A stretch of DNA of 13,005 nt from Candidatus Hadarchaeales archaeon (lineage in GTDB: Archaea > Hadarchaeota > Hadarchaeia > Hadarchaeales > Hadarchaeaceae). Positions 1-13,005 of the stretch are shown in pieces; positions within the stretch are counted from its first letter, which is position 1, and each line of letters starts with the position of its first letter. The translations under genes were made by a program, and so were the position numbers. The stretch spans positions 1-13,005 of the forward strand of contig JAVZGN010000024.1 of assembly GCA_038872135.1 (NCBI GenBank), read 5' to 3'. The notes beneath the pieces were generated by a model that was not told where the DNA came from, searched no databases, and worked only from the letters and a program-made list of their open reading frames with translations.

Positions 1-101
1 AAAATCAACTGCGAATCTCTGGTTTTTGATAATTACAGAGGATCAGCTATGGGTCCTCTTGAGGGCTCCATCTAAGTCCACCTGCGGGAGTACTGGGAGC
101 A

Positions 102-116
102 CGAAAACATTTATAA
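102..116 (+). promoter_or_regulatory. Archaeal BRE/TATA promoter of the pilin gene
   Basis: CGAAAA (102-107) followed by TTTATAA (110-116); GGTGA ribosome-binding site at 141-145 before ATG 150. Confidence 0.65.
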
Positions 117-149
117 GGGGGTGGATAAGGTTTTTCCGAAGGTGATAGA

Positions 150-800
150 ATGAAGAGATGTCTGAGAAAGGAGGAGAGAGGGATTTCACCGGTAATTGCA
201 ACGATTCTGCTGATTGCTTCAACAGTCGCCGCTGCAAGCGTTATCGCCGTCTATGTTTCTGGGTTGTACGTCGGAACTACGAGGGTTGTTGCCGGAGACA
301 TTGATGCATCCGTTCTTGACTGCGACAATGGGCCTGGAGAGAGTTATGTCAACGAAAATGTCACGATAACTTTCAAGACAACCCAGGGTTATCTCAGAAA
401 CGTTGGCGACCCCGACAGAGGCCTTACGGTAACTTTCAGGAGTCAGAGACGCGGATGGGGACCGATTGTAGCTGACGTTAAGGGGCAGACGAATTATGCT
501 CAAGGATGGGTGAAAAAAGATGGTGTTTTCACAGTTGCTACTGGTCAATACATCGTCTGGAGGCTATATATCCCAATAACATCCGCAGGCAGGCTAGAGC
601 AGGGAACGAGAGGCTATCTTTACGTAGCCTCTTCTAATGGAGTAAACGATACCGTAGATAACGCTAGGAAGCTATCCGCCACCACCAAAATCCTCTGGGA
701 CGATGAGGATGACTGGGAGATCCAGGTCTCCTGCTATGGTGACTCCTTCTCAACCTCGTTCGGGACAGTAAGACTCATGGGTAGCAACTGGATTGCATAA
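150..800 (+). CDS. Archaeal type IV pilin-like protein (class III signal peptide)
   Basis: N-terminus MKRCLRKEERG|ISPVIATILLIASTVAAASVIAVYV: short charged leader, RG cleavage site, SPVI motif and hydrophobic helix typical of archaeal Pilin_N proteins. No Glu at +5, unlike archaellins. Beta-rich globular domain with NVT and NDT sequons and two Cys. Confidence 0.85.
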   Translation: MKRCLRKEERGISPVIATILLIASTVAAASVIAVYVSGLYVGTTRVVAGDIDASVLDCDNGPGESYVNENVTITFKTTQGYLRNVGDPDRGLTVTFRSQRRGWGPIVADVKGQTNYAQGWVKKDGVFTVATGQYIVWRLYIPITSAGRLEQGTRGYLYVASSNGVNDTVDNARKLSATTKILWDDEDDWEIQVSCYGDSFSTSFGTVRLMGSNWIA

Positions 801-806
801 GAAAAC

Positions 807-834
807 TTTTTCTTTTCTATTTTTTTACATTTTT
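807..834 (+). terminator. Oligo(T) archaeal intrinsic terminator after the pilin gene
   Basis: TTTTTCTTTTCTATTTTTTTACATTTTT directly after TAA at 798-800. Confidence 0.6.
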
Positions 835-1132
835 CAGTGTCAGCAGTAATGGTTATTTTCACTTCTCCAGCAACCACCTCCAGAGAGGGGTGACCATCAC
901 CATTTTCTCGTCCTACTTTCCTCGTCTTCACGCCATTTACATCACGATGAGCATGTTCCCATACCGAACTTAGCCTTCAGCGTGACCTCGATTTCCGCCT
1001 CTTCCCTTTCGGACAGGGACCCATATCGCCAGTCACTTCTCAGAAAGAGCAAGCGTGACAAATACTAGGACATGATCGAAAGCATCACACAGTCCGAAGA
1101 CGACTAAATGCCCAACTTCAGATGAAAACAAA

Positions 1133-1145
1133 TGATAATATATCA
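1133..1145. promoter_or_regulatory. Inverted repeat TGATA-N3-TATCA overlapping the likely hypD TATA region; candidate operator
   Basis: Perfect 5-3-5 palindrome 18-30 bp upstream of ATG 1163. Confidence 0.35.
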
Positions 1146-1162
1146 CAGCCATATTGATTTTG

Positions 1163-2374
1163 ATGAAAAATTTCGATGCGCGGGATTCGATAAAAACCTT
1201 TAGAGAGAACATCCCCCTCCTCCACAGCCTCAGAAGCATCATCTGGAAGTATGCGGAGAAAATCATGGAAAAGGAGACCCCGCCAATAAAGATCATGAAC
1301 TTCTGCGGCACCCATGAATGGGCCACCGTCCACCACGGCATCAGAAAACTTCTTCCCCCTTCAATAGAGCTTGTGGCCGGCCCGGGCTGCCCAGTCTGCG
1401 TTACCCCAAGTTATTATGTTGAAGTCCTCATCAGGCTTGCCTCTGAAGGGGTGAGGGTCTACACCTATGGAGACTCTTTCAAGCTGAGGACCACCGGGGA
1501 AAATCACCCCACAAACCTTCAGGAGGCCAAAGCCGACGGCGCAGATGTCAGAGTCGTCTACAGCTTCCTCGACGCCATCAAAGATGCCAGAGCCAGCGGC
1601 AAAGAGGGTGTGTTTTTTGGCATAGGGTTTGAAACAACTGCCCCCAGCTATGCCCTGGCGTTAAGGGATGGAATGGTCCCAGATAACCTGAAGCTCCTCT
1701 CCTCCCTCCGGCTCACCCCTCCCGTGATGAAAAAGACGGTCAAAATTCACCAGGAGAGAGGCCTCCTCCAGCTGAAGGGGATAATCGCCCCAGGTCATGT
1801 TTCCACGGTAATCGGGGCAAAGGAGTGGGCCTTTCTGCCGAGAGATTATGGCCTCCCAACAGTTGTAGCTGGCTTTGAACCTGTGGATGTGATGATGGCG
1901 ATTGCGATGATTCTTCAGATGATCAAAAACAGCAAGCCCGCGGTGAAGGTTGAATACCGGAGACTCGTAAAGTGGGAGGGAAACGAAGAGGCCCTGAAAG
2001 CAATGGATGAGGTTTTTGAGAGAGTCTACGCTGCGTGGAGGGGGATAGGCATGATTCCCAGAAGCGGCCTCAGGCTGAAAGGGAAGTTTCTCGAAAGCGA
2101 CGCTCTGAAACACTACGGTTTCGAGGATGTCGCCCCGAGCAGCTTTATCTACACCCAAGCCCAGGATGATGGCGCAAGGAAAGATCTCCCCCCGGGATGC
2201 CGATGTGGAGAAGTTGTTGTGGGTACGGCGAAGCCAACCGACTGTCCCCTCTTCATGAAGAAATGCACCCCTGAGAAACCCTGGGGCCCCTGCATGGTCT
2301 CATCTGAGGGAACCTGCGCCGTCTGGGGAAGGGAAATTGGAGGAGGAGAAAATGTGCCTGGGGGTCATGGCTAG
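1163..2374 (+). CDS. hypD: [NiFe]-hydrogenase maturation protein HypD
   Basis: Motifs CGTHE, GPGCPVC, GFETT, PGHVS and GFEP, plus C-terminal [4Fe-4S] region CRCG...C-PLF...CTPEKPWGPCMVSSEGTC. ATG 1163 preferred over TTG 1154. Confidence 0.96.
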   Translation: MKNFDARDSIKTFRENIPLLHSLRSIIWKYAEKIMEKETPPIKIMNFCGTHEWATVHHGIRKLLPPSIELVAGPGCPVCVTPSYYVEVLIRLASEGVRVYTYGDSFKLRTTGENHPTNLQEAKADGADVRVVYSFLDAIKDARASGKEGVFFGIGFETTAPSYALALRDGMVPDNLKLLSSLRLTPPVMKKTVKIHQERGLLQLKGIIAPGHVSTVIGAKEWAFLPRDYGLPTVVAGFEPVDVMMAIAMILQMIKNSKPAVKVEYRRLVKWEGNEEALKAMDEVFERVYAAWRGIGMIPRSGLRLKGKFLESDALKHYGFEDVAPSSFIYTQAQDDGARKDLPPGCRCGEVVVGTAKPTDCPLFMKKCTPEKPWGPCMVSSEGTCAVWGREIGGGENVPGGHG

Positions 2375-3134
2375 AGTTGACGAAATCTGCGGAAAAACTG
2401 CAATGGTAAACTTTGGAGGGGTTAGGAAGGAAGTGATGCTCGCTACCAGCGGAATTTCCAAGGGAGATTTTGTCATGATTCATGCGGGGATGATCATCGG
2501 AAAGCTGAGCAGGGAAGAATTTCTCCAAAACCTTTCCATCTACTGCGACCTGCTGGCCCAGAATTATGAGGACTCGGGAATGGAAAGAGAGGAAGCCAGG
2601 AGAAGAGCCACAGAGGAAGTCCATAAATTGCTGCAGTCCCTAGGAATAGATGAAGATCTCCCGCCAGTTGAGAAAGAGGTGGAAGAGATGGAGGAGGAAG
2701 AGAAACTCCCGGAAAATGCATTCAGAGGTAGATACAGGGTAACCCTTTCCGATACCGACTACCTTCAGGTAATGCACTACACAAATTACCTGAGATACTG
2801 CGAGAGGGCGCAGCAGGAGCTCCTGAACTCCATTGGGATGGGTTACTACACCCTAATCCACAGGTATGGGGTTTTCATCCCAACGGTTGAAACCGCCCTC
2901 AAGGTGAAAGGGCCAGTGAGAATAGACAATGAGATAGAGGTTGTGGTGTGGGTGGAGGAAATCGGCAACAAGCACTTGAAATTCAAATCGGTGATAAAAA
3001 ACCTCACCTCCGGAAAAAAAGTCGCAGAGTGCACAACAGTTTCCGTCTGCGCAGATGTTGGGATGACAGAGTCGATGCCCCTCCCCGCTGAGCTAAAAGA
3101 AAAAATCTCCAGATATCTGGCGACAACTACTTGA
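2352..3134 (+). CDS. hypC: HypC/HupF-family chaperone fused to a YbgC/4HBT-like hotdog-fold acyl-CoA thioesterase (260 aa)
   Basis: AGGAGGAG at 2341-2348 then ATG 2352 gives MCLGVMARV...VNFGGVRKEV...GDFVMIHAG (HypC Cys2 and His). A helical/acidic linker follows, then RYRVTLSDTDYLQVMHYTNYLRYCERAQ...KGPVRIDNEIEV, a hotdog thioesterase signature. Overlaps the hypD 3' end by 23 bp. Confidence 0.88.
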   Translation: MCLGVMARVDEICGKTAMVNFGGVRKEVMLATSGISKGDFVMIHAGMIIGKLSREEFLQNLSIYCDLLAQNYEDSGMEREEARRRATEEVHKLLQSLGIDEDLPPVEKEVEEMEEEEKLPENAFRGRYRVTLSDTDYLQVMHYTNYLRYCERAQQELLNSIGMGYYTLIHRYGVFIPTVETALKVKGPVRIDNEIEVVVWVEEIGNKHLKFKSVIKNLTSGKKVAECTTVSVCADVGMTESMPLPAELKEKISRYLATTT

Positions 3135-3924
3135 GAGGCAGAAGCTCCTTTAGGCTTCTTCCAGTCGCCTGAGGATTTTTTCTCACCTTTATTATCTCCG
3201 CCATGATGCTCACGGCAATCTCCTCAGGGGTCTGAGCTCCTATATCCAAGCCTATCGGGGCGTGGAGCCGCCTGAGGGCCTCCTCCCCAAAGCCCTTTTG
3301 CTTAAGCCCCTCCAAAAGCATAAGGACCCTTCTCCTGCTCCCCACCATCCCAATGTAAGTAGCATCCGTCCGCAGAAGGAGTTCAACAGCATCCTCATCC
3401 GCCTTGTGCTCTGTGGCCGCAACAGCATAGGTTGCCCTTCCAACTTTAATCTTTGGCAAAGCCTCTTGTGCAGGTTCCCTGATCACTTCCACCCCATCTA
3501 TCTCCTCCTTCATGAGTGGATCGATCACGGTGACCTGAAAGCCGAGAAATCTTCCAAGTTTCGCCACGGCGGCCCCGACATTTCCTCCCCCCACTACAAG
3601 CAGCTTCTCGGGAATGATGACATCAATGAAAACATCAACGTTTCCACCACACCTCATCCCCACACCGCCGGCCTCCTCCTCAAGAAGGGTGGTTGAGATC
3701 TGCCTGGGCTTCCCCTCCTTTATCGCCCTCACGGCTTCATCCACCACCCCTCTCTCCACACATCCCCCGCCAATCGTCCCTATTGTCTCCCCATTTTCGA
3801 GAACGATCATCTTTGCTCCGACTTTTCTTGGAGTTGACCCAACCGTCCTGATTATGGTCACCAGGGCAAATGGAGTGCCAGACGACATGAGGTCGTTCAT
3901 TTTTGTCAGGAGGAGGTGCTCCAT
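3127..3924 (-). CDS. xdhC: XdhC/CoxI-family molybdenum cofactor insertion chaperone
   Basis: ALVTIIRTVGSTPRKVGAKM, GTIGGGCVE, GMRCGG, Rossmann-like VVGGGNVG, YIGMVGSRRR and APIGLDIGAQTPEEIAVSIMAEII. Start at ATG 3924 (or GTG 3927) avoids overlap with mre11 and has TTATAA 24-29 bp upstream. Confidence 0.92.
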   Translation of the reverse strand: MEHLLLTKMNDLMSSGTPFALVTIIRTVGSTPRKVGAKMIVLENGETIGTIGGGCVERGVVDEAVRAIKEGKPRQISTTLLEEEAGGVGMRCGGNVDVFIDVIIPEKLLVVGGGNVGAAVAKLGRFLGFQVTVIDPLMKEEIDGVEVIREPAQEALPKIKVGRATYAVAATEHKADEDAVELLLRTDATYIGMVGSRRRVLMLLEGLKQKGFGEEALRRLHAPIGLDIGAQTPEEIAVSIMAEIIKVRKNPQATGRSLKELLPLK

Positions 3925-4006
3925 CACCTGAAATTCTTTTTCCGGAATTATAAGGTAAGCGCCTGCCATTGCAAATGATTTTATGAAAACACTCAAAGAT
4001 AAAGCG
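3925..4006. promoter_or_regulatory. Divergent promoter region xdhC / mre11-rad50
   Basis: TTATAA at 3948-3953 positioned for xdhC; TTTTATGAA at 3979-3987 positioned for a near-leaderless mre11 start at 4007. Confidence 0.45.
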
Positions 4007-5305
4007 ATGAAAATAGCAGCCATCGCCGACCTTCATCTGGGCGTGAAGTGGGGGACTCAGAGAGAGATGGACGCCTTCGAGCAGGCGAAAGAAGCATTTG
4101 AGAGGGCAATCGATGCTGGTGCCGACCTCATCCTGATCCTCGGAGACATCTTCGATAGGCCTGTCCCAAGTCTCGAGGTGTGGAACAGTGCGCTGAGGAT
4201 CCTTTCAATCCCAGCCACAAAGGGGAGATGCAGGATAAAGCTGGAGAGTGCTACAGACAAACCTCTGGAGGAGATCTCCCCCCTAGCCTTCACCGGCACC
4301 CCTGTTGTGGCCATTCACGGAAACCACGAGCGGAGGACCAAAGGCCTTACAAACCCTGTTGCAGCCTTGGAGGCCGCAGGACTCCTCATCCACCTCGAAG
4401 CTGGAAAACTTGTGTTTAGGAAAAATGGAGAGAGGGTTGCAATCTGGGGCATGAGCAACTACCCAGACCAGTATGTGAAGGAAAATCTCAAAACATTGAA
4501 CCCAAAGCCCGAAAAAGGGGCCACCAACATTTTTGCCTTCCACCAGTCGATAGGGCAGTTTGTCTACTCTGAAGATGAAAAATCTATTCTCGATATCTCC
4601 GACCTCCCGCGAGGTTTTGACATATACTTGGATGGCCATGTTCACTGCAGAGGAGAAGCAGCTGTCGATGGCCGGCCACTGCTGATTCCCGGAAGCACAG
4701 AGAGAACTCAGCTCCTCCTTGCCGAAGCCGAAAACCCCAAGGGCTTCTACATGATAGAAACCGGAAATGAAATAAAATACAACTTCGTGGAGCTACATTC
4801 ACCCAGAGATTTCTTCTATGAGGAGGTGAAGTTCGAGGACGCCACGCCGCTCGAGATTCTAAACACGGCGAGGGCGAAGATCCAAGAGCTGCTCAAACGA
4901 CACAGAAAAAACACATTAAAGTCGCCCATAATCAAACTGAAGCTCCTTGGAACTCTTGCAAAGGAGGTGTCGAGAGCTGACATCGATGAGCGCCAGCTGA
5001 TCGAGGAATTTTCCAAAGAGGCCATCGTAGACATAAGGAAGGATGGTCTGATATCTCCTGGGCTCGAGGAAAAACTTCTGCACCTCAGGCAGGTGAAGGA
5101 GAGGAAGCTCTCAATTGATGAAGAAACGATAGTGATATTGGAAGACCTTCTGAAGGACACGTCCTACCGGGAGTTTTTTGACCTCAGGGCAATCTATGAG
5201 CTGGTTGTGGAGAAGCGGGAGGAGGAAGCCCTAAGAAGAATTTTGGAGGTAATTGAGCAGAAAACCCTCGCGGAGGTGGGAAGGCCAGATGATAACAAAA
5301 GTTAG
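4007..5305 (+). CDS. mre11: DNA double-strand break repair nuclease Mre11 (SbcD family)
   Basis: Metallophosphoesterase motifs ADLH, GDIFD, GNHE, FHQ and GHVH, PGS; lies directly upstream of rad50. ATG 4007 (MKIAAIADLH) preferred; alternative 3983. Confidence 0.92.
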   Translation: MKIAAIADLHLGVKWGTQREMDAFEQAKEAFERAIDAGADLILILGDIFDRPVPSLEVWNSALRILSIPATKGRCRIKLESATDKPLEEISPLAFTGTPVVAIHGNHERRTKGLTNPVAALEAAGLLIHLEAGKLVFRKNGERVAIWGMSNYPDQYVKENLKTLNPKPEKGATNIFAFHQSIGQFVYSEDEKSILDISDLPRGFDIYLDGHVHCRGEAAVDGRPLLIPGSTERTQLLLAEAENPKGFYMIETGNEIKYNFVELHSPRDFFYEEVKFEDATPLEILNTARAKIQELLKRHRKNTLKSPIIKLKLLGTLAKEVSRADIDERQLIEEFSKEAIVDIRKDGLISPGLEEKLLHLRQVKERKLSIDEETIVILEDLLKDTSYREFFDLRAIYELVVEKREEEALRRILEVIEQKTLAEVGRPDDNKS

Positions 5306-7700
5306 GCTGAAGAACTGGAAATCCCACGAGGAGACGACCATAGTTCTCGGGGACGGGACAAATGTTCTGGTCGGGATAATGGGGGCTGGGAAAAGCTCTG
5401 TGTTGGATGCGATAACCTACGCCCTTTTTGGAACGCTCCCGGCTGTAAAAACGCGCAGGCTCAGGCTGGAGGATCTCATAACCTCTCGCCCAGTTCCCAA
5501 GCAGAGGGCCGATGTCGAGGTTCAAATCTCGACGGAAAAAGGGGAGTATCTTGTGAGAAGGGCGATAGAGAGGGGTCGCGGGACGGTCCTTGCTGAGCTC
5601 AGGAAGGCCACGGGAGAGCTCATAGAGGGTGGGAGTTCCGACCGCGTAACGGAGAATGTGGAAAAAATCCTAGGAATAACTGCAGATATCTACGAGAGGG
5701 CGGTCTACGCCGAGCAGAACCAGCTGGACTACTTTCTCACCATTCCGAAAGGGAAGAGGATGGAAAGCATTGATGAGCTTCTTGGAATAAAAAAGCTTGA
5801 GGAGGGAAGAAAAAATATCGGAACTCTCGCAAACAAAATAGGCCAAAGGGCAGATGAACTTAGAGCGCAAATTCAACAGATGAAGGGAGATCCCTCTCTA
5901 GCTAAACTTCCCGCGCTTGAAGAGGAAATCTCAAAACTTGAAGATGACCTCTCGAGGAAAAACTTGGAGCTTCAAAGCGTCGAAAGGGAGCTACAAAAGG
6001 TCTCCGAGAGCTATGAAGCCATGGCGAAGGTTGCAAAAGAGATATCTGAGCTAAAAACCAAGCTTGCCTCCCAGGAAGCGACTGTTCAGGTGCTGAAGAA
6101 AAACAGGGAAGAACTCGTAGCTATGCTAAAGTCCTATGCCGAGATCCCCCTTCAGGACCTCCTGAATAAGTCTAGGGAACTTCAGGAGAGGTATCTCCAG
6201 AAGGCGGCGGCTGCGGAGGAAATGTTCTCAAAGTTCACATCAGCATCGCTTGCACTGAGAACTCTCGAAGATGAGAAAAGAGTGGTGGAGGAGAAGATAG
6301 AGACACTGTCGGCTGAAATTCAGGAAAAGCTATTAAAGAAAAATGAGCTCGATAGTCTCCCGGAAAAACTTGAGGAGACTGTGGCTGAACTAAGAAGCGT
6401 CTACATAAATTCTGAAAAAGCTATTGCCGAGATGAACGCGCGCCTCGATACTCTCTCGAAATCTCTGGAGGAACTCTCGGCTGTCGAAGCAGTTTGCCCC
6501 GTGTGTGAGAGCCAGCTTTCAGCTGAAAAGAAAGATGAGCTGATTGAGAAAAGAAGGAAAGAAATTGCTGATGTGAAGGAGAGAATCACGAACCTTTTAA
6601 AGGAAAGAGATAGCAAAAAGGCGACGCTGGACAAATATGAAAGCATCCTTCAGAAAGCAAAAATTTTGGAAAACGAGATAAAAAATCTTCAGGAAAAAGA
6701 AGGGGAACTCTCAGCCTTAAAAACCCGTCTTGAAGAAATCCAAAAGAAGCTCGGGGAAGCAAGAGAAAACATCACAAAGATTGAAGCAATGGTCACTCAT
6801 GCTAAGAATGAAAAGGAAGCAGCAAACAAGGAAATGATCGAATTCAATCAAATAGTTGAGAAAAGGATGATGCTGGAGAAAACTAAGAATGATCTTGCAA
6901 CTGCATCCTCGCTAGAAGAATCGACGAGGAGAAGATTGGAAGAAGTGTCGAAAAACTACAGCGAGGAGGAGTTCAAAAAGATCGAGGATGAAAGGAACAG
7001 CCTCACTGGCAGGGAGAACTGGTTAAAGGCCGAAATTCAGGGCATCCAAAAAAACTTGGACACGAAGAGAGAGCTGCTGAAATCAATTCAACAAAAGCTG
7101 TACCAGATAAAATACTCGGAAGCAAAATTCGCCAACCTCCAGAAGGCAGAAGAAGCGTTGAATGCCTTTCAGCGAGCACTGGCCGATGCTCAGATCATCC
7201 TCAGAAGGAGATTTCTGGGAACCGTCAATGAAGTCATGAAAGATCTCTGGGAGGCAATATACCCCTATGGAGATTTTGTTGGCATTCGGCTGGCCGTTGA
7301 AGAACCGCAGAGCGACTATGCTCTCCAGCTCAAGGACAGGAGTGGTGAGTGGAGAAATGTTGAGGGAGGAGTCAGCGGTGGTGAGAGGACCGAGGCCTGT
7401 CTAGCCTTCAGGATAGCTTTGGCCATGGCTCTCGCCCCAAATCTGAGCTGGCTTGTTCTTGATGAGCCAACCCACAATCTTGATGAAAAGGCAGTTGAAG
7501 AGCTGGCGAAGGTGATGAGAGAGAGACTTCCCGGCATCGTCAAGCAGATAATCCTGATAACTCACGATGAAAAGTTTGAGGCCGCCGTCAGCGGTCATCT
7601 CTACAGATTCAACAGGGATAAGGCGAGTGATGGTCCAACAATAGTCGAGCACATAACAGCATCGGGGATGTTTGGCGGCGGGCTATCTCAAAAGTTTTGA
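5289..7700 (+). CDS. rad50: DNA double-strand break repair ATPase Rad50 (SMC/SbcC family, 803 aa)
   Basis: GGAGGTG RBS before ATG 5289; Walker A GIMGAGKSS, Q-loop YAEQ, long coiled coil with central zinc hook CPVC, signature SGGE, Walker B LVLDEPT, H-loop ITHD. Confidence 0.95.
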   Translation: MITKVRLKNWKSHEETTIVLGDGTNVLVGIMGAGKSSVLDAITYALFGTLPAVKTRRLRLEDLITSRPVPKQRADVEVQISTEKGEYLVRRAIERGRGTVLAELRKATGELIEGGSSDRVTENVEKILGITADIYERAVYAEQNQLDYFLTIPKGKRMESIDELLGIKKLEEGRKNIGTLANKIGQRADELRAQIQQMKGDPSLAKLPALEEEISKLEDDLSRKNLELQSVERELQKVSESYEAMAKVAKEISELKTKLASQEATVQVLKKNREELVAMLKSYAEIPLQDLLNKSRELQERYLQKAAAAEEMFSKFTSASLALRTLEDEKRVVEEKIETLSAEIQEKLLKKNELDSLPEKLEETVAELRSVYINSEKAIAEMNARLDTLSKSLEELSAVEAVCPVCESQLSAEKKDELIEKRRKEIADVKERITNLLKERDSKKATLDKYESILQKAKILENEIKNLQEKEGELSALKTRLEEIQKKLGEARENITKIEAMVTHAKNEKEAANKEMIEFNQIVEKRMMLEKTKNDLATASSLEESTRRRLEEVSKNYSEEEFKKIEDERNSLTGRENWLKAEIQGIQKNLDTKRELLKSIQQKLYQIKYSEAKFANLQKAEEALNAFQRALADAQIILRRRFLGTVNEVMKDLWEAIYPYGDFVGIRLAVEEPQSDYALQLKDRSGEWRNVEGGVSGGERTEACLAFRIALAMALAPNLSWLVLDEPTHNLDEKAVEELAKVMRERLPGIVKQIILITHDEKFEAAVSGHLYRFNRDKASDGPTIVEHITASGMFGGGLSQKF

Positions 7701-9029
7701 AAGCTCCCTCACGGTTTTCTCAACAATCACTTTGGCGTTCCCTAGGTAGGCGGAGGGCTGTAAAAATGCTGAGAGTTCCTCTTCAGAAATCCTCCTCGTC
7801 ACTTCCCTCTCCTTCCTGAGGACCTCAAAAAATGAGAGGTTCTGGAGGAGAGCTTTCGCCGTGCAGCGCCTCAAGAGCTTGTGGGCCTCCTGCCTGTTCA
7901 TCCCCCGCTTGGTCAATTCTATCATCAGGGCCTCTGCCATATTGAGCCCTCTCGTCATCTCAAGATTCTTCTCCATTCTTTCTGGGAAAACCCTGAGTCC
8001 CTGAAGAACGAATATCGCGGTCGACAAAATCTCATCGAGGAGGAGAAAAGACTGTGGGAGAAGGATCCTTTCGCAGGATGAATTTGTCAGGTCCCTCTCA
8101 TGCTCTATAACAACATTTTCCAGCGCCGCGGAAACCTGTGACCTGAGAACCCTTGCGATGCCGCAGATTTTCTCACATCTTATGGGGTTGCGCTTCTGTG
8201 GCATCGTGCTACTTCCTATCTGCTTCTCTGCAAAAGGTTCGCTGACCTCTCCTATCTCGGTCCTCTGGAGATTTCTTATTTCCCGGGCAATTTTGTCAAA
8301 GGTGCTCGCCACCAACCCGAAAAATGTGATGAGTTCAGCGAATCTGTCCCTCTGGACTATCTGTGTTGAATCCATCGCCGGCAAAAGCCCCATCTCTTTC
8401 ATCACAAGCTCCTGAATCTTCAGTCCCTTCTCGCCCCAAGCCGCTCCCGTCCCAACTGCCCCGCTCATTTTTCCCACCAGGACTCTCGGCTTGAGCTGTT
8501 GAAGTCTCTCCAAATGCCGCCCAATTTCCGCCGCCCAGATAGCGACCTTCATCCCAAAAGTTATCGGAACCGCATGCTGGCCATGGGTTCTGCCCACCAT
8601 CAATGTGTTTTTGTGCGTGACCGCAAGCTTGAGGAGAATTCTCAAAATCTCTTTCATCTTTTTTTCGATGATAAAAAGTCCATCTCTGATCTGAGTTGCC
8701 ATTGCGGTGTCTAAGATGTCATTGCTCGTTGCACCAAAATGGACATATCTTCCGGCGGGCCCAGCAGCCTCGGCAAGAGCCAAGACCATCGCCATCGTCT
8801 CGTGGTGGACCTCCTTTTCCAGCTGGGAAATTCTCTCCACGCTCACCTTCTTAAGGGAGGCCGCCGAGGCTATTTTCGCTGCATCGGAAGCTGGGATCAT
8901 CCCGAGAGCGGCGAGAGCCTTAGCGAGAGCGGCTTCAACATCCAGCATCCTCTGAAATCTAGAGGTATCGGTGAAAATCTCCCGCATTTCTTTGCTACCA
9001 TATCTCCCTTCTATTGGATGAACCGCCAT
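7683..9029 (-). CDS. purB: Adenylosuccinate lyase
   Basis: RYGS N-terminus, HFGATSNDI, GRTHGQHA, GKMSGAVG and fumarate-lyase signature SSTMPQKRNP, HERDLTNS. Start MAVHPIEGRY at 9029 (GGAG upstream) preferred over 9059. Confidence 0.96.
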   Translation of the reverse strand: MAVHPIEGRYGSKEMREIFTDTSRFQRMLDVEAALAKALAALGMIPASDAAKIASAASLKKVSVERISQLEKEVHHETMAMVLALAEAAGPAGRYVHFGATSNDILDTAMATQIRDGLFIIEKKMKEILRILLKLAVTHKNTLMVGRTHGQHAVPITFGMKVAIWAAEIGRHLERLQQLKPRVLVGKMSGAVGTGAAWGEKGLKIQELVMKEMGLLPAMDSTQIVQRDRFAELITFFGLVASTFDKIAREIRNLQRTEIGEVSEPFAEKQIGSSTMPQKRNPIRCEKICGIARVLRSQVSAALENVVIEHERDLTNSSCERILLPQSFLLLDEILSTAIFVLQGLRVFPERMEKNLEMTRGLNMAEALMIELTKRGMNRQEAHKLLRRCTAKALLQNLSFFEVLRKEREVTRRISEEELSAFLQPSAYLGNAKVIVEKTVRELSKLLR

Positions 9030-9078
9030 CTTCCGCTCCAACTCCACAGGTTTCCTCATAAAATAAAGCTTTTGAAGA

Positions 9079-10125
9079 TCAATCGATCACTTCAAGGCGG
9101 GAAAGGGCCTTCCTCTGCTCTGGCGTTATTTCAATCGGATGGGGTCGCTCCATGATCTCGGCTTTTTTTGCTTCCCCAAAAAGGAGGGTGGAGAAATACC
9201 TAAAACCGTGGTCGTTCAGCATCGTCACAATTCTCTTCAGCTCCGGATGCTTTCTGTGAAGCTTCAGACAGCACTCAACATTTGCGCCGCTCGAAATCCC
9301 AACAAAAAGACCCTCATCCCTCGCTATTCTCTTGGTCATCCAGATTGCCCTTTCAGAGGAAACTGTGATCACCCCATCCATGAGCGAAAGATCTAAAATT
9401 GAAGGAATGAAACCATCGCCTATCCCCTCGATGTTGTGACTGCCCCACTGCTGCTTGGAGAGAACCGGGCATTCAGAGGGCTCGCACACATATACTTTTA
9501 CATTTGGATCTTTCTTCTTCAGATATTTTGCAACCCCTGTGATGGTGCCACCGGTTCCAGCAGTAGCCACAAAAGCGTCTATTTTCCCCTCCATCTGCTC
9601 CCAGATCTCTGGCCCAGTTGTTTCATAGTGGGCCCGAACATTCATTGGGTTGTTGAACTGGTCGACCCAGAAGTAGTGGTCGGGGTCTGAGCTTACCAGC
9701 TCCCTCGCCTGCCTAAGGGCGAGATCAACATCAGATTCAGCGCCTGGAACCGTGAGAATCTTGGCTCCAAATGCCCTTATCGCCTTCATCCTCTCCTCGC
9801 TCATTCCCTCAGGGATGATGATCAGCACAGGAAAACCGAAGTATGCCCCAAACATTGCTGTGGAAATTCCTGTGTTCCCAGTGGTGCTTTCGACAATCGT
9901 CATCCCCGGCCTCAGCTTTCCCTCGGAAATGGCCTGTGTTAGAATCTTCACCAAAATTCTGTCCTTCAGGCTGCCCGAGGGGTTCATGAACTCCGCCTTC
10001 CCGAAGAGCTCGAGATCGGGAAAGCCCGCAAGCTTCGGTAGTCTGTTGAACCTTATGAGCGGGGTGTTTCCAACGAGCTCGGTTAAGCTTTCCACGGGCT
10101 TCCTGAACTGCTCCACTTCACGCAC
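9079..10125 (-). CDS. PLP-dependent cysteine synthase / cystathionine beta-synthase family enzyme
   Basis: VGNTPL, KAEFMNPSGSLKDR (PLP lysine), STTGNTG, QFNNP, GTGGT, HNIEGIG, GISSGA. Start GTG 10125 or TTG 10128. Exact activity cannot be called. Confidence 0.9.
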   Translation of the reverse strand: MREVEQFRKPVESLTELVGNTPLIRFNRLPKLAGFPDLELFGKAEFMNPSGSLKDRILVKILTQAISEGKLRPGMTIVESTTGNTGISTAMFGAYFGFPVLIIIPEGMSEERMKAIRAFGAKILTVPGAESDVDLALRQARELVSSDPDHYFWVDQFNNPMNVRAHYETTGPEIWEQMEGKIDAFVATAGTGGTITGVAKYLKKKDPNVKVYVCEPSECPVLSKQQWGSHNIEGIGDGFIPSILDLSLMDGVITVSSERAIWMTKRIARDEGLFVGISSGANVECCLKLHRKHPELKRIVTMLNDHGFRYFSTLLFGEAKKAEIMERPHPIEITPEQRKALSRLEVID

Positions 10126-10128
10126 CAA

Positions 10129-10158
10129 TTATTATAATAGGTGGCTTAAATAAATGAG
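10129..10158. promoter_or_regulatory. 30-bp bidirectional promoter between the cysteine synthase-like gene and the beta-propeller gene
   Basis: Palindromic TATTATAATA at 10130-10139 and CTTAAATAAA at 10145-10154, each about 20-28 bp from the opposite start codon. Confidence 0.5.
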
Positions 10159-11364
10159 ATGAAAGTAGCGGTCATCGTCGTCCTGCTCCTTCTCTCGGCG
10201 GCAGGGGTGACGGAAGGCTGGGAAGCATTCAGAGGTGATGTGGAAAGGAGGGGCTACTCACCCACAGAAACTGTGCCCCCGACACCGGAAATTGCTTGGA
10301 CGACATTTGCCGATGCCCCATCCTCGCCGGTGGTTGGAGGACTTCTGGTTTTTGTAGGAACAGGAGATGGTGAGCTTCTCGCCCTGGAGGCCCACAGCGA
10401 TCGCCCTGTTTGGAGATTCAAGGCAGGAGATCAAATATCAACCCCCACCTACTCAAATGGGAGGATCTACTTTGGATCGAGGGACAACAATGTCTATTGT
10501 GTGAGCGAGGATAACGGCAACCTTCTCTGGAAGTACCAAACAAATGGTCCCATCTACTCCTCGCCTGCTGTGCGTGGGAATGCTGTCTACATCACTTCAA
10601 CTGACAACAATGTTTATGCTCTCAATGCCTCTAACGGCTCACTTTTGTGGAAGAAGGGGCTTGGGGCAAAAATCACATCATCCCCGGCGATCAGCGGGGA
10701 CAGGCTCTATGTGGGGACCTGGAAGGGAACCATGTGTTCTCTCGATGTCTCCACTGGCGAGGTTAAATGGGAATTCCGCCCCGAGATCTCAGGAGAGCGT
10801 GAGAACTATCCAATAGTTTCGACGCCGGCCGTGAAGGGAGAGATTATTTTTTTCGGAAGCAACAACCACTACTTTTACGCCATTAACGCTGCCGGGGAAA
10901 AACTCTGGGAGTTTGAAGCAGGCGATAAAATCCCATCTTCTCCTTCGGTGGCGGAGAATGTTGTTTATTTCGGCGCCGTGGATGGTTATGTGTATTCACT
11001 TTGGGTTGAAAATGGCGATTTGCGATGGAAATTTCAGACAGGGGGAGAAATTCACTCATCTCCTGCAGTGACGGGGAAAGAAGTTGTAATCGGCTCAGCA
11101 GATGGCTATCTCTACAACATCTCGGAAAATGGGGAGCTAAATTGGAAAATCAACGTTGGGGCCATCATGAACAACTCTCCGGCGCTGGCCTATGGAAAGG
11201 TGTTCATAACGACCGCAGATGGAAAAATTTACTGTATTGGGGACTGGGGAAAGCCGGGCGGTGATTATCTCTGGCAGGGGCTTATTTATCTCGGCATCTC
11301 AGCCTTCTTCCTGTTGCTTCTCCTAGCCTACAGACACTTCATACCAGAAAAATCTAGGGGCTAG
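10159..11364 (+). CDS. Secreted, C-terminally membrane-anchored PQQ-like (BamB-type) 8-blade beta-propeller protein
   Basis: Signal peptide MKVAVIVVLLLLSAAG; WEAFRGDVERRG N-terminal motif; eight SSP-x-V...GS-DG-YA...G-W repeats; C-terminal TM helix LWQGLIYLGISAFFLLLLLAY followed by a basic tail. Confidence 0.88.
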   Translation: MKVAVIVVLLLLSAAGVTEGWEAFRGDVERRGYSPTETVPPTPEIAWTTFADAPSSPVVGGLLVFVGTGDGELLALEAHSDRPVWRFKAGDQISTPTYSNGRIYFGSRDNNVYCVSEDNGNLLWKYQTNGPIYSSPAVRGNAVYITSTDNNVYALNASNGSLLWKKGLGAKITSSPAISGDRLYVGTWKGTMCSLDVSTGEVKWEFRPEISGERENYPIVSTPAVKGEIIFFGSNNHYFYAINAAGEKLWEFEAGDKIPSSPSVAENVVYFGAVDGYVYSLWVENGDLRWKFQTGGEIHSSPAVTGKEVVIGSADGYLYNISENGELNWKINVGAIMNNSPALAYGKVFITTADGKIYCIGDWGKPGGDYLWQGLIYLGISAFFLLLLLAYRHFIPEKSRG

Positions 11365-11502
11365 CAATTTCTTGTGCAAAAGGACGGGGAACGAAGTTGC
11401 TACATGACCGTTTGCCCTTCTTGAGATATTTGGTTAAACACCATCGAGCAAAAAGTAAGTTAAATTATTAAAAATAACATGACATAATATGGAACTAACA
11501 TT

Positions 11503-11721
11503 GTGAAAGCAGTGGTGGATCTGGACGAAAGAACAGAGTGGTGAACATTGTAAAAGCAAAGTATGGTCTGAAAGACAAGTCCGAAGCCATCAGAAAAATC
11601 GCGGAAGAATATGAAGAAATGTTGCTCGAACCAGCATTGAGACCAGAATTCATCAAAAAAAATGAAAATTCGTCAAAGGGAAAAAGTCGTTAAAGACCTC
11701 AAGAAAAGATATGGGCTGTGA
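11503..11721 (+). pseudogene. Frameshifted DUF2683-like antitoxin
   Basis: Manual reconstruction across two frameshifts (about 11533 and the A8 run 11655-11662) gives VKAVVDLDER/RVVNIVKAKYGLKDKSEAIRKIAEEYEEMLLEPALRPEFIKK/MKIRQREKVVKDLKKRYGL*, which matches the archaeal DUF2683 pattern from recognition. Stop overlaps the toxin start (TGATG). Confidence 0.75.
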
Positions 11722-11984
11722 TGTACTCGCTGGAGATCAGAGAAAGCGTTGCCCGCAATTTTCGTAAACTTGCGAAGACAAGCGCCAGATGCTGGCCGTG
11801 GTAAAAAAGATAGAACAGGTCTGTGCCAATCCTTACCACTTCAAACCGTTGAGAGCACCTATGCAACATCTGAGGCGGGTGCATGTTGGGGGGTGTTGTT
11901 CTCGTGTACTCGGTAGATGGGAAGCGCAGAGTTGTGACGATAGAGGAATACGCACACCATGATGAGGTTTACCTGCGCAGATGA
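11721..11984 (+). pseudogene. Frameshifted RelE/StbE/YafQ-superfamily toxin
   Basis: Reconstruction across two frameshifts (about 11775 and next to the G6 run 11888-11893) gives MYSLEIRESVARNFRKLA/DKRQMLAVVKKIEQVCANPYHFKPLRAPMQHLRRVHVGG/VLVYSVDGKRRVVTIEEYAHHDEVYLRR*. The KPLR, RRVH and HHDEVY motifs are typical of archaeal RelE-like toxins. Premature TAA at 11802-11804. Confidence 0.8.
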
Positions 11985-12354
11985 GTTCAAGCCCGCCACC
12001 TGTTATCGAGTCCAAAGGTGAAGGCACTAAGAGTACTGATAAACATGAGGCGACTTGATCTGTTGAAAGAGATAAGGGGTAGCATCAGCCTTTAAGTTGA
12101 GCAATGAGACGAACACCAAGTGATATGCGCTCTGAGTAAATGAGCAAATTGGCGAAGAAATCGATGGAGTTATGGTCTACATCGCTGTTTTTGGATTTGA
12201 CCTTCATGAATAAGCTGACAGTTGTTGAAACAACCGTTAACCCGACATCCATCCGACCTGGAAAACTTTTCGGATGAAATGGCTGCTCCGATTCGAAAAG
12301 CTAGGAATTTCCTCATTGCACTTATGCGTGCTCTACATGCATTTGGAATTCCAG

Positions 12355-12448
12355 TGGTGGGGTCGCCGGGATTTGAACCCAGGTCACCGGCTTTTCCGCG
12401 CTCAGCGCCCCGAAGCCGGCAGGATAGACCATGCTACCCCACGACCCC
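12355..12448 (-). tRNA. tRNA-Pro(CGG) with 16-nt intron at 37/38 and encoded CCA
   Basis: Minus strand GGGGTCG TG GGGTAGCATGGTCTATCCT G CCGGC TTCGGG [GCGCTGAGCGCGGAAA] A GCCGG TGAC CTGGG TTCAAAT CCCGG CGACCCC A CCA folds into a full cloverleaf. Confidence 0.96.
12393..12408 (-). other. Archaeal tRNA intron with bulge-helix-bulge motif
   Basis: U32-U33-C34-G35 pairs with intron CGGA (one G-U); 3-nt bulges GG|G and AA|A; intron stem CGC/GCG closes a UGA loop. Confidence 0.9.
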
Positions 12449-12470
12449 GACCAGAACTCTGATTGTCAAG

Positions 12471-12484
12471 TTTAAGAATTTCTG
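12471..12484. promoter_or_regulatory. Shared TATA element between tRNA-Pro and the HAD gene
   Basis: TTTAAG at 12471-12476 reads CTTAAA on the minus strand (preceded by CAGAAATT), 23-28 bp before the tRNA, and is 26-31 bp before ATG 12502 on the plus strand. Confidence 0.45.
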
Positions 12485-12501
12485 CCTGAAAGAAGAAACT
12501 G

Positions 12502-13005
12502 ATGATAAAAGCGGTATCTTTCGACCTTGACGGGACCTTGGTCGATGGAAAATTTGTCGATTCAGTGTGGTTTGAGGAAATCCCGCGCCAATACTCCTTG
12601 AAACATGGAGTTCCTCTGAAAACCGCCCTGAGCAAAATAAAAAGAGAATATGCAGCGGTTGGGGATGGCAGACGGGAGTGGTACGACATAAATTTTTGGA
12701 TAAAAAAATTCAAGCTGGACGTCGACTACCTGCAGATCTTCCGCAACTGCCTTCCTTATCTGAAGTTGCATCAAGATGTCATCCCAGTCCTCAGGAAGTT
12801 AAAAAGGAAATATAAATTGATCCTCGTCACGAACGCCGCGAGAGAATTTCTAGAGTTTGAGATAAAACATCTGAAGATCAGAAAATTTTTCCAATTTACA
12901 TTTTCTTCCATCTCCGATCTTGAAACTATAAGAAAGAATTGGAGGCTTTACCTAAAGGTGGCAAAAATAGTCGGGGTGAAACCGGAAGAAATGGTCCATG
13001 TTGGA
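12502..13005 (+). CDS. HAD-superfamily hydrolase (subfamily IA), truncated by window end
   Basis: Open frame MIKAVSFDLDGTLVD (motif I DxDGT)...LILVTNA (motif II)...RK (motif III)...KPEEMVHVG (start of motif IV). No stop before 13005, so absent from the ORF track. Confidence 0.9.
   Translation, partial: MIKAVSFDLDGTLVDGKFVDSVWFEEIPRQYSLKHGVPLKTALSKIKREYAAVGDGRREWYDINFWIKKFKLDVDYLQIFRNCLPYLKLHQDVIPVLRKLKRKYKLILVTNAAREFLEFEIKHLKIRKFFQFTFSSISDLETIRKNWRLYLKVAKIVGVKPEEMVHVG

Follow-up and report, generated by a model that had tools for sequence, protein, structure and literature searches.

A HypC hydrogenase-maturation chaperone joined to an accessory YbgC-like hotdog domain in archaea

The chaperone HypC, through its cysteine at position 2 (Cys2), holds iron together with HypD; the Fe(CN)2CO unit of [NiFe]-hydrogenases is built there and HypC delivers it to the hydrogenase large subunit. 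A stretch of 13,005 nucleotides (nt) from a Candidatus Hadarchaeales archaeon (GenBank assembly GCA_038872135.1, contig JAVZGN010000024.1, positions 1 to 13,005 of the forward strand; the whole stretch is referred to below as the window) encodes a HypC that continues, by way of a helical hairpin and an acidic tether, into a hotdog-fold domain of the YbgC-like thioesterase type. This fusion is a real and conserved architecture of a well-known chaperone, apparently one not described before. It is also new that the hotdog domain is accessory, as a tree of HypD proteins and the repeated loss of the domain without replacement show.

The fused gene

The fusion gene occupies positions 2352..3134 on the + strand, 260 codons and a stop in an unbroken frame. 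Upstream lies hypD (1154..2374, + strand; Pfam HypD over residues 32-391, E 1e-123), encoding the [4Fe-4S] scaffold partner of HypC, and the ATG of the fusion is placed inside the hypD 3' end, an overlap of 23 nt. The longest possible start of hypD is the TTG at 1154, its real start being uncertain. The open-frame listing carries the fusion frame up to a TTG at 2337; the family alignment favours the Met-Cys start at 2352, which gives the protein the N-terminus MCLGV. Two Pfam domains are found well above their cut-offs: HupF_HypC (PF01455) in residues 1-63 (58.7 bits against 28.5) and 4HBT_2 in residues 130-252 (56.7 bits against 25.5). An initial annotation, made from the letters of the window and a list of its open reading frames, had described one intact 260-residue frame overlapping hypD, with Cys2, the histidine of IHAG and a DTD triplet at 2751-2759; frame, Pfam matches and overlap bear out the first two points, and the residues are where it put them. 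The single linker of ~55 residues that it drew between the domains is indeed helical and acidic, but it is not one element: it divides into a modelled hairpin (residues 54-96) and an acidic tether of ~20 residues.

Independent contigs, from a run of a different study, span positions 2200-2672 and 2685-2842 with zero indels; positions 2673-2684 are unbridged by any independent contig, which makes this support for the junction partial. Contigs of the run that may be the source extend over the whole window. An indel in the linker, which the initial annotation had named among the findings that would refute it, is absent from all of the linker that the independent contigs cover. The runs that contain this DNA are labelled hot springs metagenome, and no RNA run is listed among them. 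The joining of the two domains is not due to chance and is not an artefact: the same architecture recurs across database matches and genomes.

Recurrence of the fusion

In a collection of 5.8 billion proteins, 58 of 59 matches (143-455 residues, 40-100% identity) carry both Pfam domains. The remaining one, P0060, is 152 residues long and has the thioesterase part alone. It was examined as a possible split form, but it clusters at 90% identity with a 270-residue protein annotated as HypC at its source and is therefore probably a truncated gene call. Of the 150 best matches listed by an exhaustive phmmer search over 1.84 billion cluster representatives, four are full-length fusion clusters (at the 50% level), and the best stand-alone hotdog relative has 39% identity. 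A pattern scan of species-representative genomes, from which the best 80 of 217 matches were kept, found the full fusion at 20 loci (L011-L030), all of them in metagenome-assembled genomes (MAGs) whose record titles name Hadarchaeota/Hadesarchaea, Geoarchaeota, Nitrososphaeria/Nitrososphaerota, Desulfurococcales, Sulfolobales or Thermoproteota. Every carrier found is uncultured. Of these best 80, the remaining 60 are partial, low-identity matches to bacterial thioesterases, and no stand-alone copy of the hotdog subfamily of the fusion is among the 80: the next match after the 20 fusions has 23% identity. The fusion is found across two phyla, with its junction and tether conserved, and with 58 database matches and 20 species-representative genomes it is not unique to this assembly, a prospect that the initial annotation had entertained.

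No description of a fusion of HypC with a thioesterase or hotdog domain was found in the open-access literature, as judged by titles and the openings of abstracts, with supplements excluded; the initial annotation had not recognized the architecture either. In the matching passages of one paper (PMC12727194), the sole mention of a thioesterase concerns an alpha/beta-hydrolase cluster.

The HypC half, the hairpin and the tether

The HypC beta-barrel (residues 1-53, 2352..2510, + strand) matches PF01455 and has its strands at residues 5-52 of the structural model. Cys2 is encoded at 2355-2357 and a cysteine stands at position 2 in all 20 loci, preceded by ATG or GTG in 19 of them and by ACG in L024. 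(In L024, at 7968-8003, none of ATG, GTG and TTG occurs in the interval from the preceding in-frame stop to the Cys codon; the start may be non-canonical, or the sequence may contain an error.) His44 of the IHAG motif, at 2481-2483, is invariant in 33 of 33 aligned sequences, and we take the conserved histidine of an xHxG motif to be defining of HypC. By sequence (phmmer) the barrel is closest, over residues 1-66, to the HypC of Thermococcus kodakarensis (2z1c/3vyr). What the fusion has in common with HypC, HybG and HupF (T. kodakarensis 2z1c and 3vyr-3vyu are examples) is the Met-Cys start, the histidine of xHAG, a barrel followed by a helix, the pairing with hypD and the position of hypC in the hyp operon. 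It differs in size and content: the solved chains that it matches have 74-103 residues, whereas the fusion, with 260, adds a second helix, an acidic tether and an enzyme domain.

An AlphaFold2 model was built from the 33-sequence family alignment (mean predicted local distance difference test, pLDDT, 86.4; predicted template-modelling score, pTM, 0.55). It consists of the barrel (5-52), a hairpin of two helices (54-74 and 79-96), a low-confidence tether (~100-120) and the hotdog (124-255). The hairpin extension (residues 54-99, 2511..2648, + strand) has block-mean pLDDT values of 85-89. The tether that follows it (residues ~100-120, about 20 in all; 2649..2711, + strand) is acidic and flexible, falls below pLDDT 50 at residues 108-115, and varies in length between the aligned members of the family. 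The same hairpin is kept in 11 translated HypCs of 96-116 residues that have no hotdog, and it is a feature of this HypC lineage, more than a linker. A complex prediction with HypD, HypC residues 1-100 and the hotdog (residues 117-260, the scored partner) returned a score of 0.00 against a mark of 0.32, which counts neither for nor against a contact.

Conservation is unevenly spread over these regions. Mean pairwise identity is 0.50 in the barrel (residues 1-53; 4 of 53 columns invariant), 0.39 in the hairpin (54-99; 3 of 46), 0.22 in the tether (100-120; 0 of 21) and 0.61 in the hotdog (121-255; 28 of 135), which is the best-conserved region.

The hotdog domain and its active site

The YbgC-like hotdog thioesterase domain (residues 121-255, 2712..3116, + strand) is identified by 4HBT_2 and by Foldseek, which matches it to 5v10, 1s5u, 2egi and 5kl9 with target-normalised TM scores of 0.83-0.90 (E 2.6e-11). 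The Foldseek matches include complexes of E. coli YbgC with coenzyme A (CoA) and acyl-CoA, and also SgcE10, CalE7 and DynE7, which are hotdog thioesterases for protein-bound thioesters. The D134-T-D136 triplet at 2751-2759 (+ strand) contains the predicted active-site aspartate, Asp136, at 2757-2759. D136 aligns with the EDTD or ETD of 5v10 and 1z54, and Dillon and Bateman (PMC516016) assign this aspartate to the active site of YbgC-like and 4HBT class I enzymes. All 33 fusion rows and all 103 stand-alone homologues have it, and with its neighbours it forms the most strictly conserved stretch of the entire protein; all 20 loci share the motif [D/E]-T-D-Y-L-Q-V-x-H-Y-T-N. By-eye comparison with pattern PS01328, as quoted in PMC516016, finds R129, V130, T135, D136, V140 and Y146 in agreement.

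Around this common core the fusions have residues of their own. Comparison of fusion and stand-alone rows (fusion row P0061, which has DYLQA in place of DYLQV, was left out) shows eight positions that are invariant in the fusions and rare among the 103 stand-alone homologues: L132 (in 2), Y137 (5), L138 (6), T144 (6), C150 (9), H170 (6), T178 (0) and H208 (5). A further such position is Q139, present in all 33 fusions and in only 7 of the 103 stand-alone homologues, of which 81 have Gly. The domain shares its fold, the Asp of D-T-D and a length of ~135 residues with YbgC/4HBT class I proteins of known structure (1s5u/5kl9/5t06, 5v10 of Pseudomonas aeruginosa, 2egi of Aquifex and 1z54 of Thermus). 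Unlike these, it is joined to HypC, is archaeal, has no tol-pal context, has Q139 for the Gly of the pattern and carries about nine family-specific invariants. From these alignments it looks like an active thioesterase, apparently with a remodelled, specialised pocket.

Descent of the fusion and loss of the hotdog domain

The phylum of the window was surveyed in 66 genomes. Eight have the fusion and 12 have an "extended HypC", whose match to the fusion stops at about residue 97-127. The HypC match is shorter in 35 and absent from 11; a stand-alone match to the hotdog half is found in none of the 66. Even within the genus of the window, two genomes have the fusion and two do not. The identity of HypD to the window copy is bimodal in this survey, at 57-67% in 21 other genomes and 42-48% in 38, and the 57-67% group is made up of all seven other fusion genomes, all 12 extended-HypC genomes and two more.

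In a maximum-likelihood HypD tree (40 rows from translated tblastn segments, 7 duplicate loci dropped), every HypD linked to a fusion, from both phyla, and those linked to extended HypCs form a single clade, here called type A, with 100/100 support. The fusion-linked rows are basal and paraphyletic within it. Hotdog-less forms are nested among them, and the well-supported branches require that the extended-HypC label change state at least three times. The extended HypCs themselves end inside the tether after the hairpin, and some retain an acidic remnant. Given this nesting and the shared pocket signature, a single origin of the fusion followed by at least three losses of the hotdog is the economical reading, one that we infer on the assumption of a root between the two HypD types.

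The losses are not compensated by another thioesterase of the 4HBT type. Matches to PF13279 or PF03061 number zero in 12 of 12 extended-HypC genomes (79-95% complete), and all eight fusion genomes have exactly one match each to PF13279 and PF03061, which is the fusion itself. Relatives with an unlinked thioesterase, a finding that the initial annotation had named as damaging to its proposal, did not turn up: the hotdog-less relatives carry none. Its larger proposal, of a candidate new arm of cofactor assembly, is weakened. With at least three losses, and with no 4HBT-type thioesterase in the 12 extended-HypC genomes, the hotdog domain is accessory and optional; it is not required for assembly and is no universal step of maturation.

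Two clearly separate HypD types occur side by side in a single archaeal family, and one genus (g2) has both. The 57-67% type pairs with extended or fused HypC; in the loci examined, the gene for the extended or fused HypC lies directly downstream of a hypD of the 57-67% type. The distribution suggests either transfer of a hypD-hypC module or old paralogy with differential loss. Two members of the fusion-type HypD clade, L147 and L149 (genomes G069 and G067), are accompanied by short HypCs of 69-72 residues that have no hairpin, which may represent either a further reduction or a state that preceded the hairpin.

The fusion as the HypC of the cell

The fusion is the sole HupF_HypC match in its own genome (1.08 Mb, 91% complete) and the sole HypC match in 10 of the 11 fusion genomes checked, that is, in its own and in nine of ten others (5 of 5 MAGs of Sulfolobales/Desulfurococcales type and 4 of 5 other fusion genomes). 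The eleventh has an extra hypC-like locus (L114/L115, G006:C18:12436-12626) with open frames of 43 and 36 residues; split as it is over two frames, this locus may be a pseudogene or the product of faulty assembly. The genome of the window also encodes hypF, hypE and hypA, and it has two hydrogenase modules that are related to Complex I and group-4-like, with large subunits that keep both Ni-Fe cysteine pairs, in RxCGxC and a C-terminal CxxC. On these sequence grounds the fusion appears to act as the HypC of the cell.

ECH_1, of the crotonase family, is the domain family that we take to make up the C-terminal half of HypX. It has no match in this genome at 91% completeness, and a two-domain ECH_1 frame of HypX size is found neither there nor in the 10 other fusion genomes, the six ECH_1 matches lying in frames of 259-301 residues. 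The second hypC and the hypX that the initial annotation had proposed looking for are accordingly missing from the genome of the window as matches to HupF_HypC and ECH_1.

Two side observations on this genome may be recorded here. In the second group-4-like module (L159, G000:C1, 7112-10759), a gene for a CCG-domain (HdrB-like) protein stands between the genes of the 30-kDa and large subunits, and a 4Fe-4S dicluster domain is joined to the small subunit. Also in L159 (14576-15760, - strand), hypA directly adjoins a gene for a P-loop ATPase of the ParA/NUBPL type, which is a candidate for the archaeal stand-in for HypB.

What the tethered hotdog may do

Our tentative proposal is that the tethered thioesterase strips acyl adducts off the N-terminal cysteine of HypC, or depletes the adjacent acyl-CoA, in an editing or resetting role. 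The Cys2 barrel and HypD would hold the iron, and the fused HypC would deliver to its clients, the two group-4-like large subunits. The hotdog, presumably a competent thioesterase of the YbgC type, would be kept within reach of the scaffold by the ~20-residue tether and would hydrolyse acyl thioesters at the assembly site, its likeliest substrates being acetyl or formyl adducts on the cysteine or acyl-CoA nearby. As a result, the thiol and the amine would be kept, or reset, free for iron binding. Such a step would be one of accessory quality control, of benefit to some hot-spring lineages and not needed by others. Catalytic activity, substrate and direction (the clearing of adducts as against loading) are all conjectural parts of this scheme.

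An N-terminal cysteine is intrinsically reactive toward thioesters, and presumably more so in hot habitats. For E. coli HypC, Haase et al. 2024 (PMC10847431) report adducts of +26 Da and +28 Da that depend on Cys2 and are discussed as acetyl-derived and formyl; a 2025 review has HypX making CO via formyl-CoA. With formyl-CoA and the Cys2 adducts as published context, thioester chemistry at Cys2 is plausible, and an editing role is favoured because the domain can be dispensed with and the fold hydrolyses by default. There is also an analogy. Type II thioesterases have an editing role, and in the carrier-thioesterase modules of polyketide and non-ribosomal peptide synthesis, as in the fusion, a thiol carrier is followed by a tethered thioesterase, hotdog thioesterases being known to act on carrier-bound thioesters (SgcE10, 4i4j; CalE7, 2w3x; DynE7, 2xem). 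The parallel has its limit in the thiol, which in HypC is the side chain of an iron-binding cysteine and in the carriers belongs to a phosphopantetheine arm.

Several considerations tell against editing. Editing is proposed here by analogy, and a productive role, in which an acyl group is loaded or converted, would suit these observations equally well in most respects. The authors of PMC10847431 read the E. coli HypC adducts as possible intermediates, not damage. The pTM of 0.55 means that the AlphaFold2 model gives the hotdog no fixed placement relative to Cys2. The sequence departs from pattern PS01328 at three positions, having Q139 where the pattern has G, M141 where it has V and Y143 where it has H or F; with these departures, the Gly included, the chemistry of the hotdog may not be simple hydrolysis. 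The NCBIfam model for YbgC/FadM, TIGR00051, scores 53.2, below its cut-off of 68.7. The YbgC equivalog TIGR02799 (52.7 against 141.35) and the HypC model TIGR00074 (40.1 against 48) are likewise below theirs; placed under the cut-offs of the YbgC/FadM and HypC models, the fusion appears to belong to both superfamilies and to be the orthologue of neither named protein.

The productive role would be one in making the CO ligand, and we regard it as doubtful. The hotdog would take formyl- or acetyl-CoA and load Cys2 via an acyl-Asp, or carry out a conversion at the scaffold. The idea has a setting in the literature. According to the 2025 review, HypX (an N10-formyl-tetrahydrofolate transferase-like domain and an enoyl-CoA hydratase-like domain) is needed under oxic conditions only, the source of CO under anoxic conditions is the most pressing open question, and formyl-CoA is a candidate precursor whose own origin is asked about; the background that the initial annotation gave on the formyl-CoA route and the anoxic question is accurate by that text. 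In PMC10847431 the precursor is suggested perhaps to begin as an acetyl or formyl group on Cys2, and PMC516016 has the family Asp proposed as a nucleophile in a related Pseudomonas enzyme, which would permit acyl transfer. The family-specific remodelling of the pocket, the lack of a HypX-sized ECH_1 frame in the 11 fusion genomes and the presence of a 2-oxoacid:ferredoxin oxidoreductase beside the fusion in 8 of 20 loci can be named on the same side.

If so, the domain would be an optional anaerobic counterpart of HypX, and lineages lacking it would use a slower route, intrinsic to HypCD or spontaneous, a scheme of which we are equally doubtful. HypX is similar in that it is an accessory factor of maturation, not a universal one, and works at the HypCD step through CoA-thioester chemistry; it differs in having formyltransferase-like and enoyl-CoA hydratase-like domains, no hotdog and no fusion to HypC. 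The tree is the main obstacle: the hotdog was lost at least three times, and the 12 hotdog-less genomes keep hypD and hypC without any 4HBT-type enzyme. The oxidoreductase adjacency, coming from one lineage (a single HypD clade), amounts to one observation. To our knowledge, moreover, most anaerobes with [NiFe]-hydrogenases lack the hotdog domain, and we know of no decarbonylation by a hotdog fold. Nothing in the results shows that the hotdog supplies a precursor of CO, as the initial annotation had suggested it could.

It is unlikely that the hotdog serves without catalysis, only oligomerising HypC into dimers or tetramers or docking HypD, HypE or the large subunit. Hotdogs of the YbgC type are homo-oligomers, and the matched solved entries list 2 to 12 chains per sequence. 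Bivalence of HypC could be useful, since HypCD binds the HypE dimer two at a time (2025 review). Nevertheless, the strictest conservation is at Asp136 and its neighbours, which a role confined to interfaces does not require. Improbable, too, is a union of unrelated halves, in which the loss of a stop codon joined hypC to the gene of a housekeeping thioesterase for short-chain acyl-CoA, the two being tied by co-expression alone. That the hotdog is the sole 4HBT-type domain in these small genomes, and that its loss appears to be tolerated, would suit such an origin; two phyla nonetheless retain the fusion, with junction and tether conserved, no stand-alone copy of the subfamily is among the best 80 of 217 matches, and the best stand-alone relative, in the phmmer search, reaches only 39% identity. 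A sensor that binds CoA or acyl-CoA and gates HypC by the state of carbon and energy metabolism is very unlikely: the fold does bind ligands, the tether is flexible and the domain is dispensable, but sensing needs no invariant catalytic Asp, and we found and know of no regulatory precedent for domains of the YbgC type.

Gene neighbourhoods

In 12 of the 20 loci the gene immediately upstream of the fusion is hypD. In L019-L021 the fusion stands between hypD and hypE in an operon made up of two hdrA-like genes, mvhD, the small subunit, the large subunit, hycI, hypD, the fusion, hypE and hypF. At the other eight loci hypD is elsewhere in the genome (in 5 of 5 genomes checked) and the fusion adjoins a 2-oxoacid:ferredoxin oxidoreductase block (L023, 213-5108; L024-L030), all in MAGs of Desulfurococcales/Sulfolobales type. 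The block has six genes: those for the alpha, beta and gamma subunits of the oxidoreductase and for three further proteins, one of 176-205 residues with a weak glutaredoxin match, one of 380 residues resembling the DsbD/CcdA-type membrane thiol-disulfide transporters (a likeness that comes from atlas features only) and one like DUF1286. In some loci the block is turned round with respect to the fusion, yet the adjacency persists. The 2-oxoacid:ferredoxin oxidoreductases are a class of enzymes that make acyl-CoA, and the block was considered as a source of acyl-CoA for the hotdog; all eight instances coming from one lineage, it is treated as a lead and is not counted as evidence.

In the window, an XdhC-family gene (3127-4023, - strand; Pfam XdhC_CoxI and XdhC_C) is convergent with the fusion, the last 8 nt of which it overlaps. 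Its best NCBIfam model, 'XdhC family aldehyde oxidoreductase maturation factor', scores 208, below the cut-off of 350. Beyond it are genes with a Mre11-type phosphoesterase and a Rad50-type domain. As a conserved partner of the fusion the XdhC-like gene was rejected, following it only in the window and in L017, of the same genus, and in none of the 18 other loci.

Implications for hydrogenase maturation

The fusion ties a thioester enzyme to the very cysteine that mass spectrometry has implicated in E. coli, and the resulting protein may be a reagent that is small, soluble and open to testing. Were the domain to clear adducts from Cys2, these would be damage for cells to manage; were it to make or convert them, they would be intermediates. 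Either outcome would inform the work on E. coli. The repeated loss of the hotdog tempers expectations, in that the domain cannot be a universal step, and it also provides natural pairs with and without the domain, some of them within one genus, as ready comparisons. Should the hotdog after all take part in making the CO ligand, thioester chemistry would underlie the synthesis of that ligand without O2, as it does with HypX in air. On the acknowledged question of where CO comes from under anoxic conditions, the fusion offers a concrete experimental handle.

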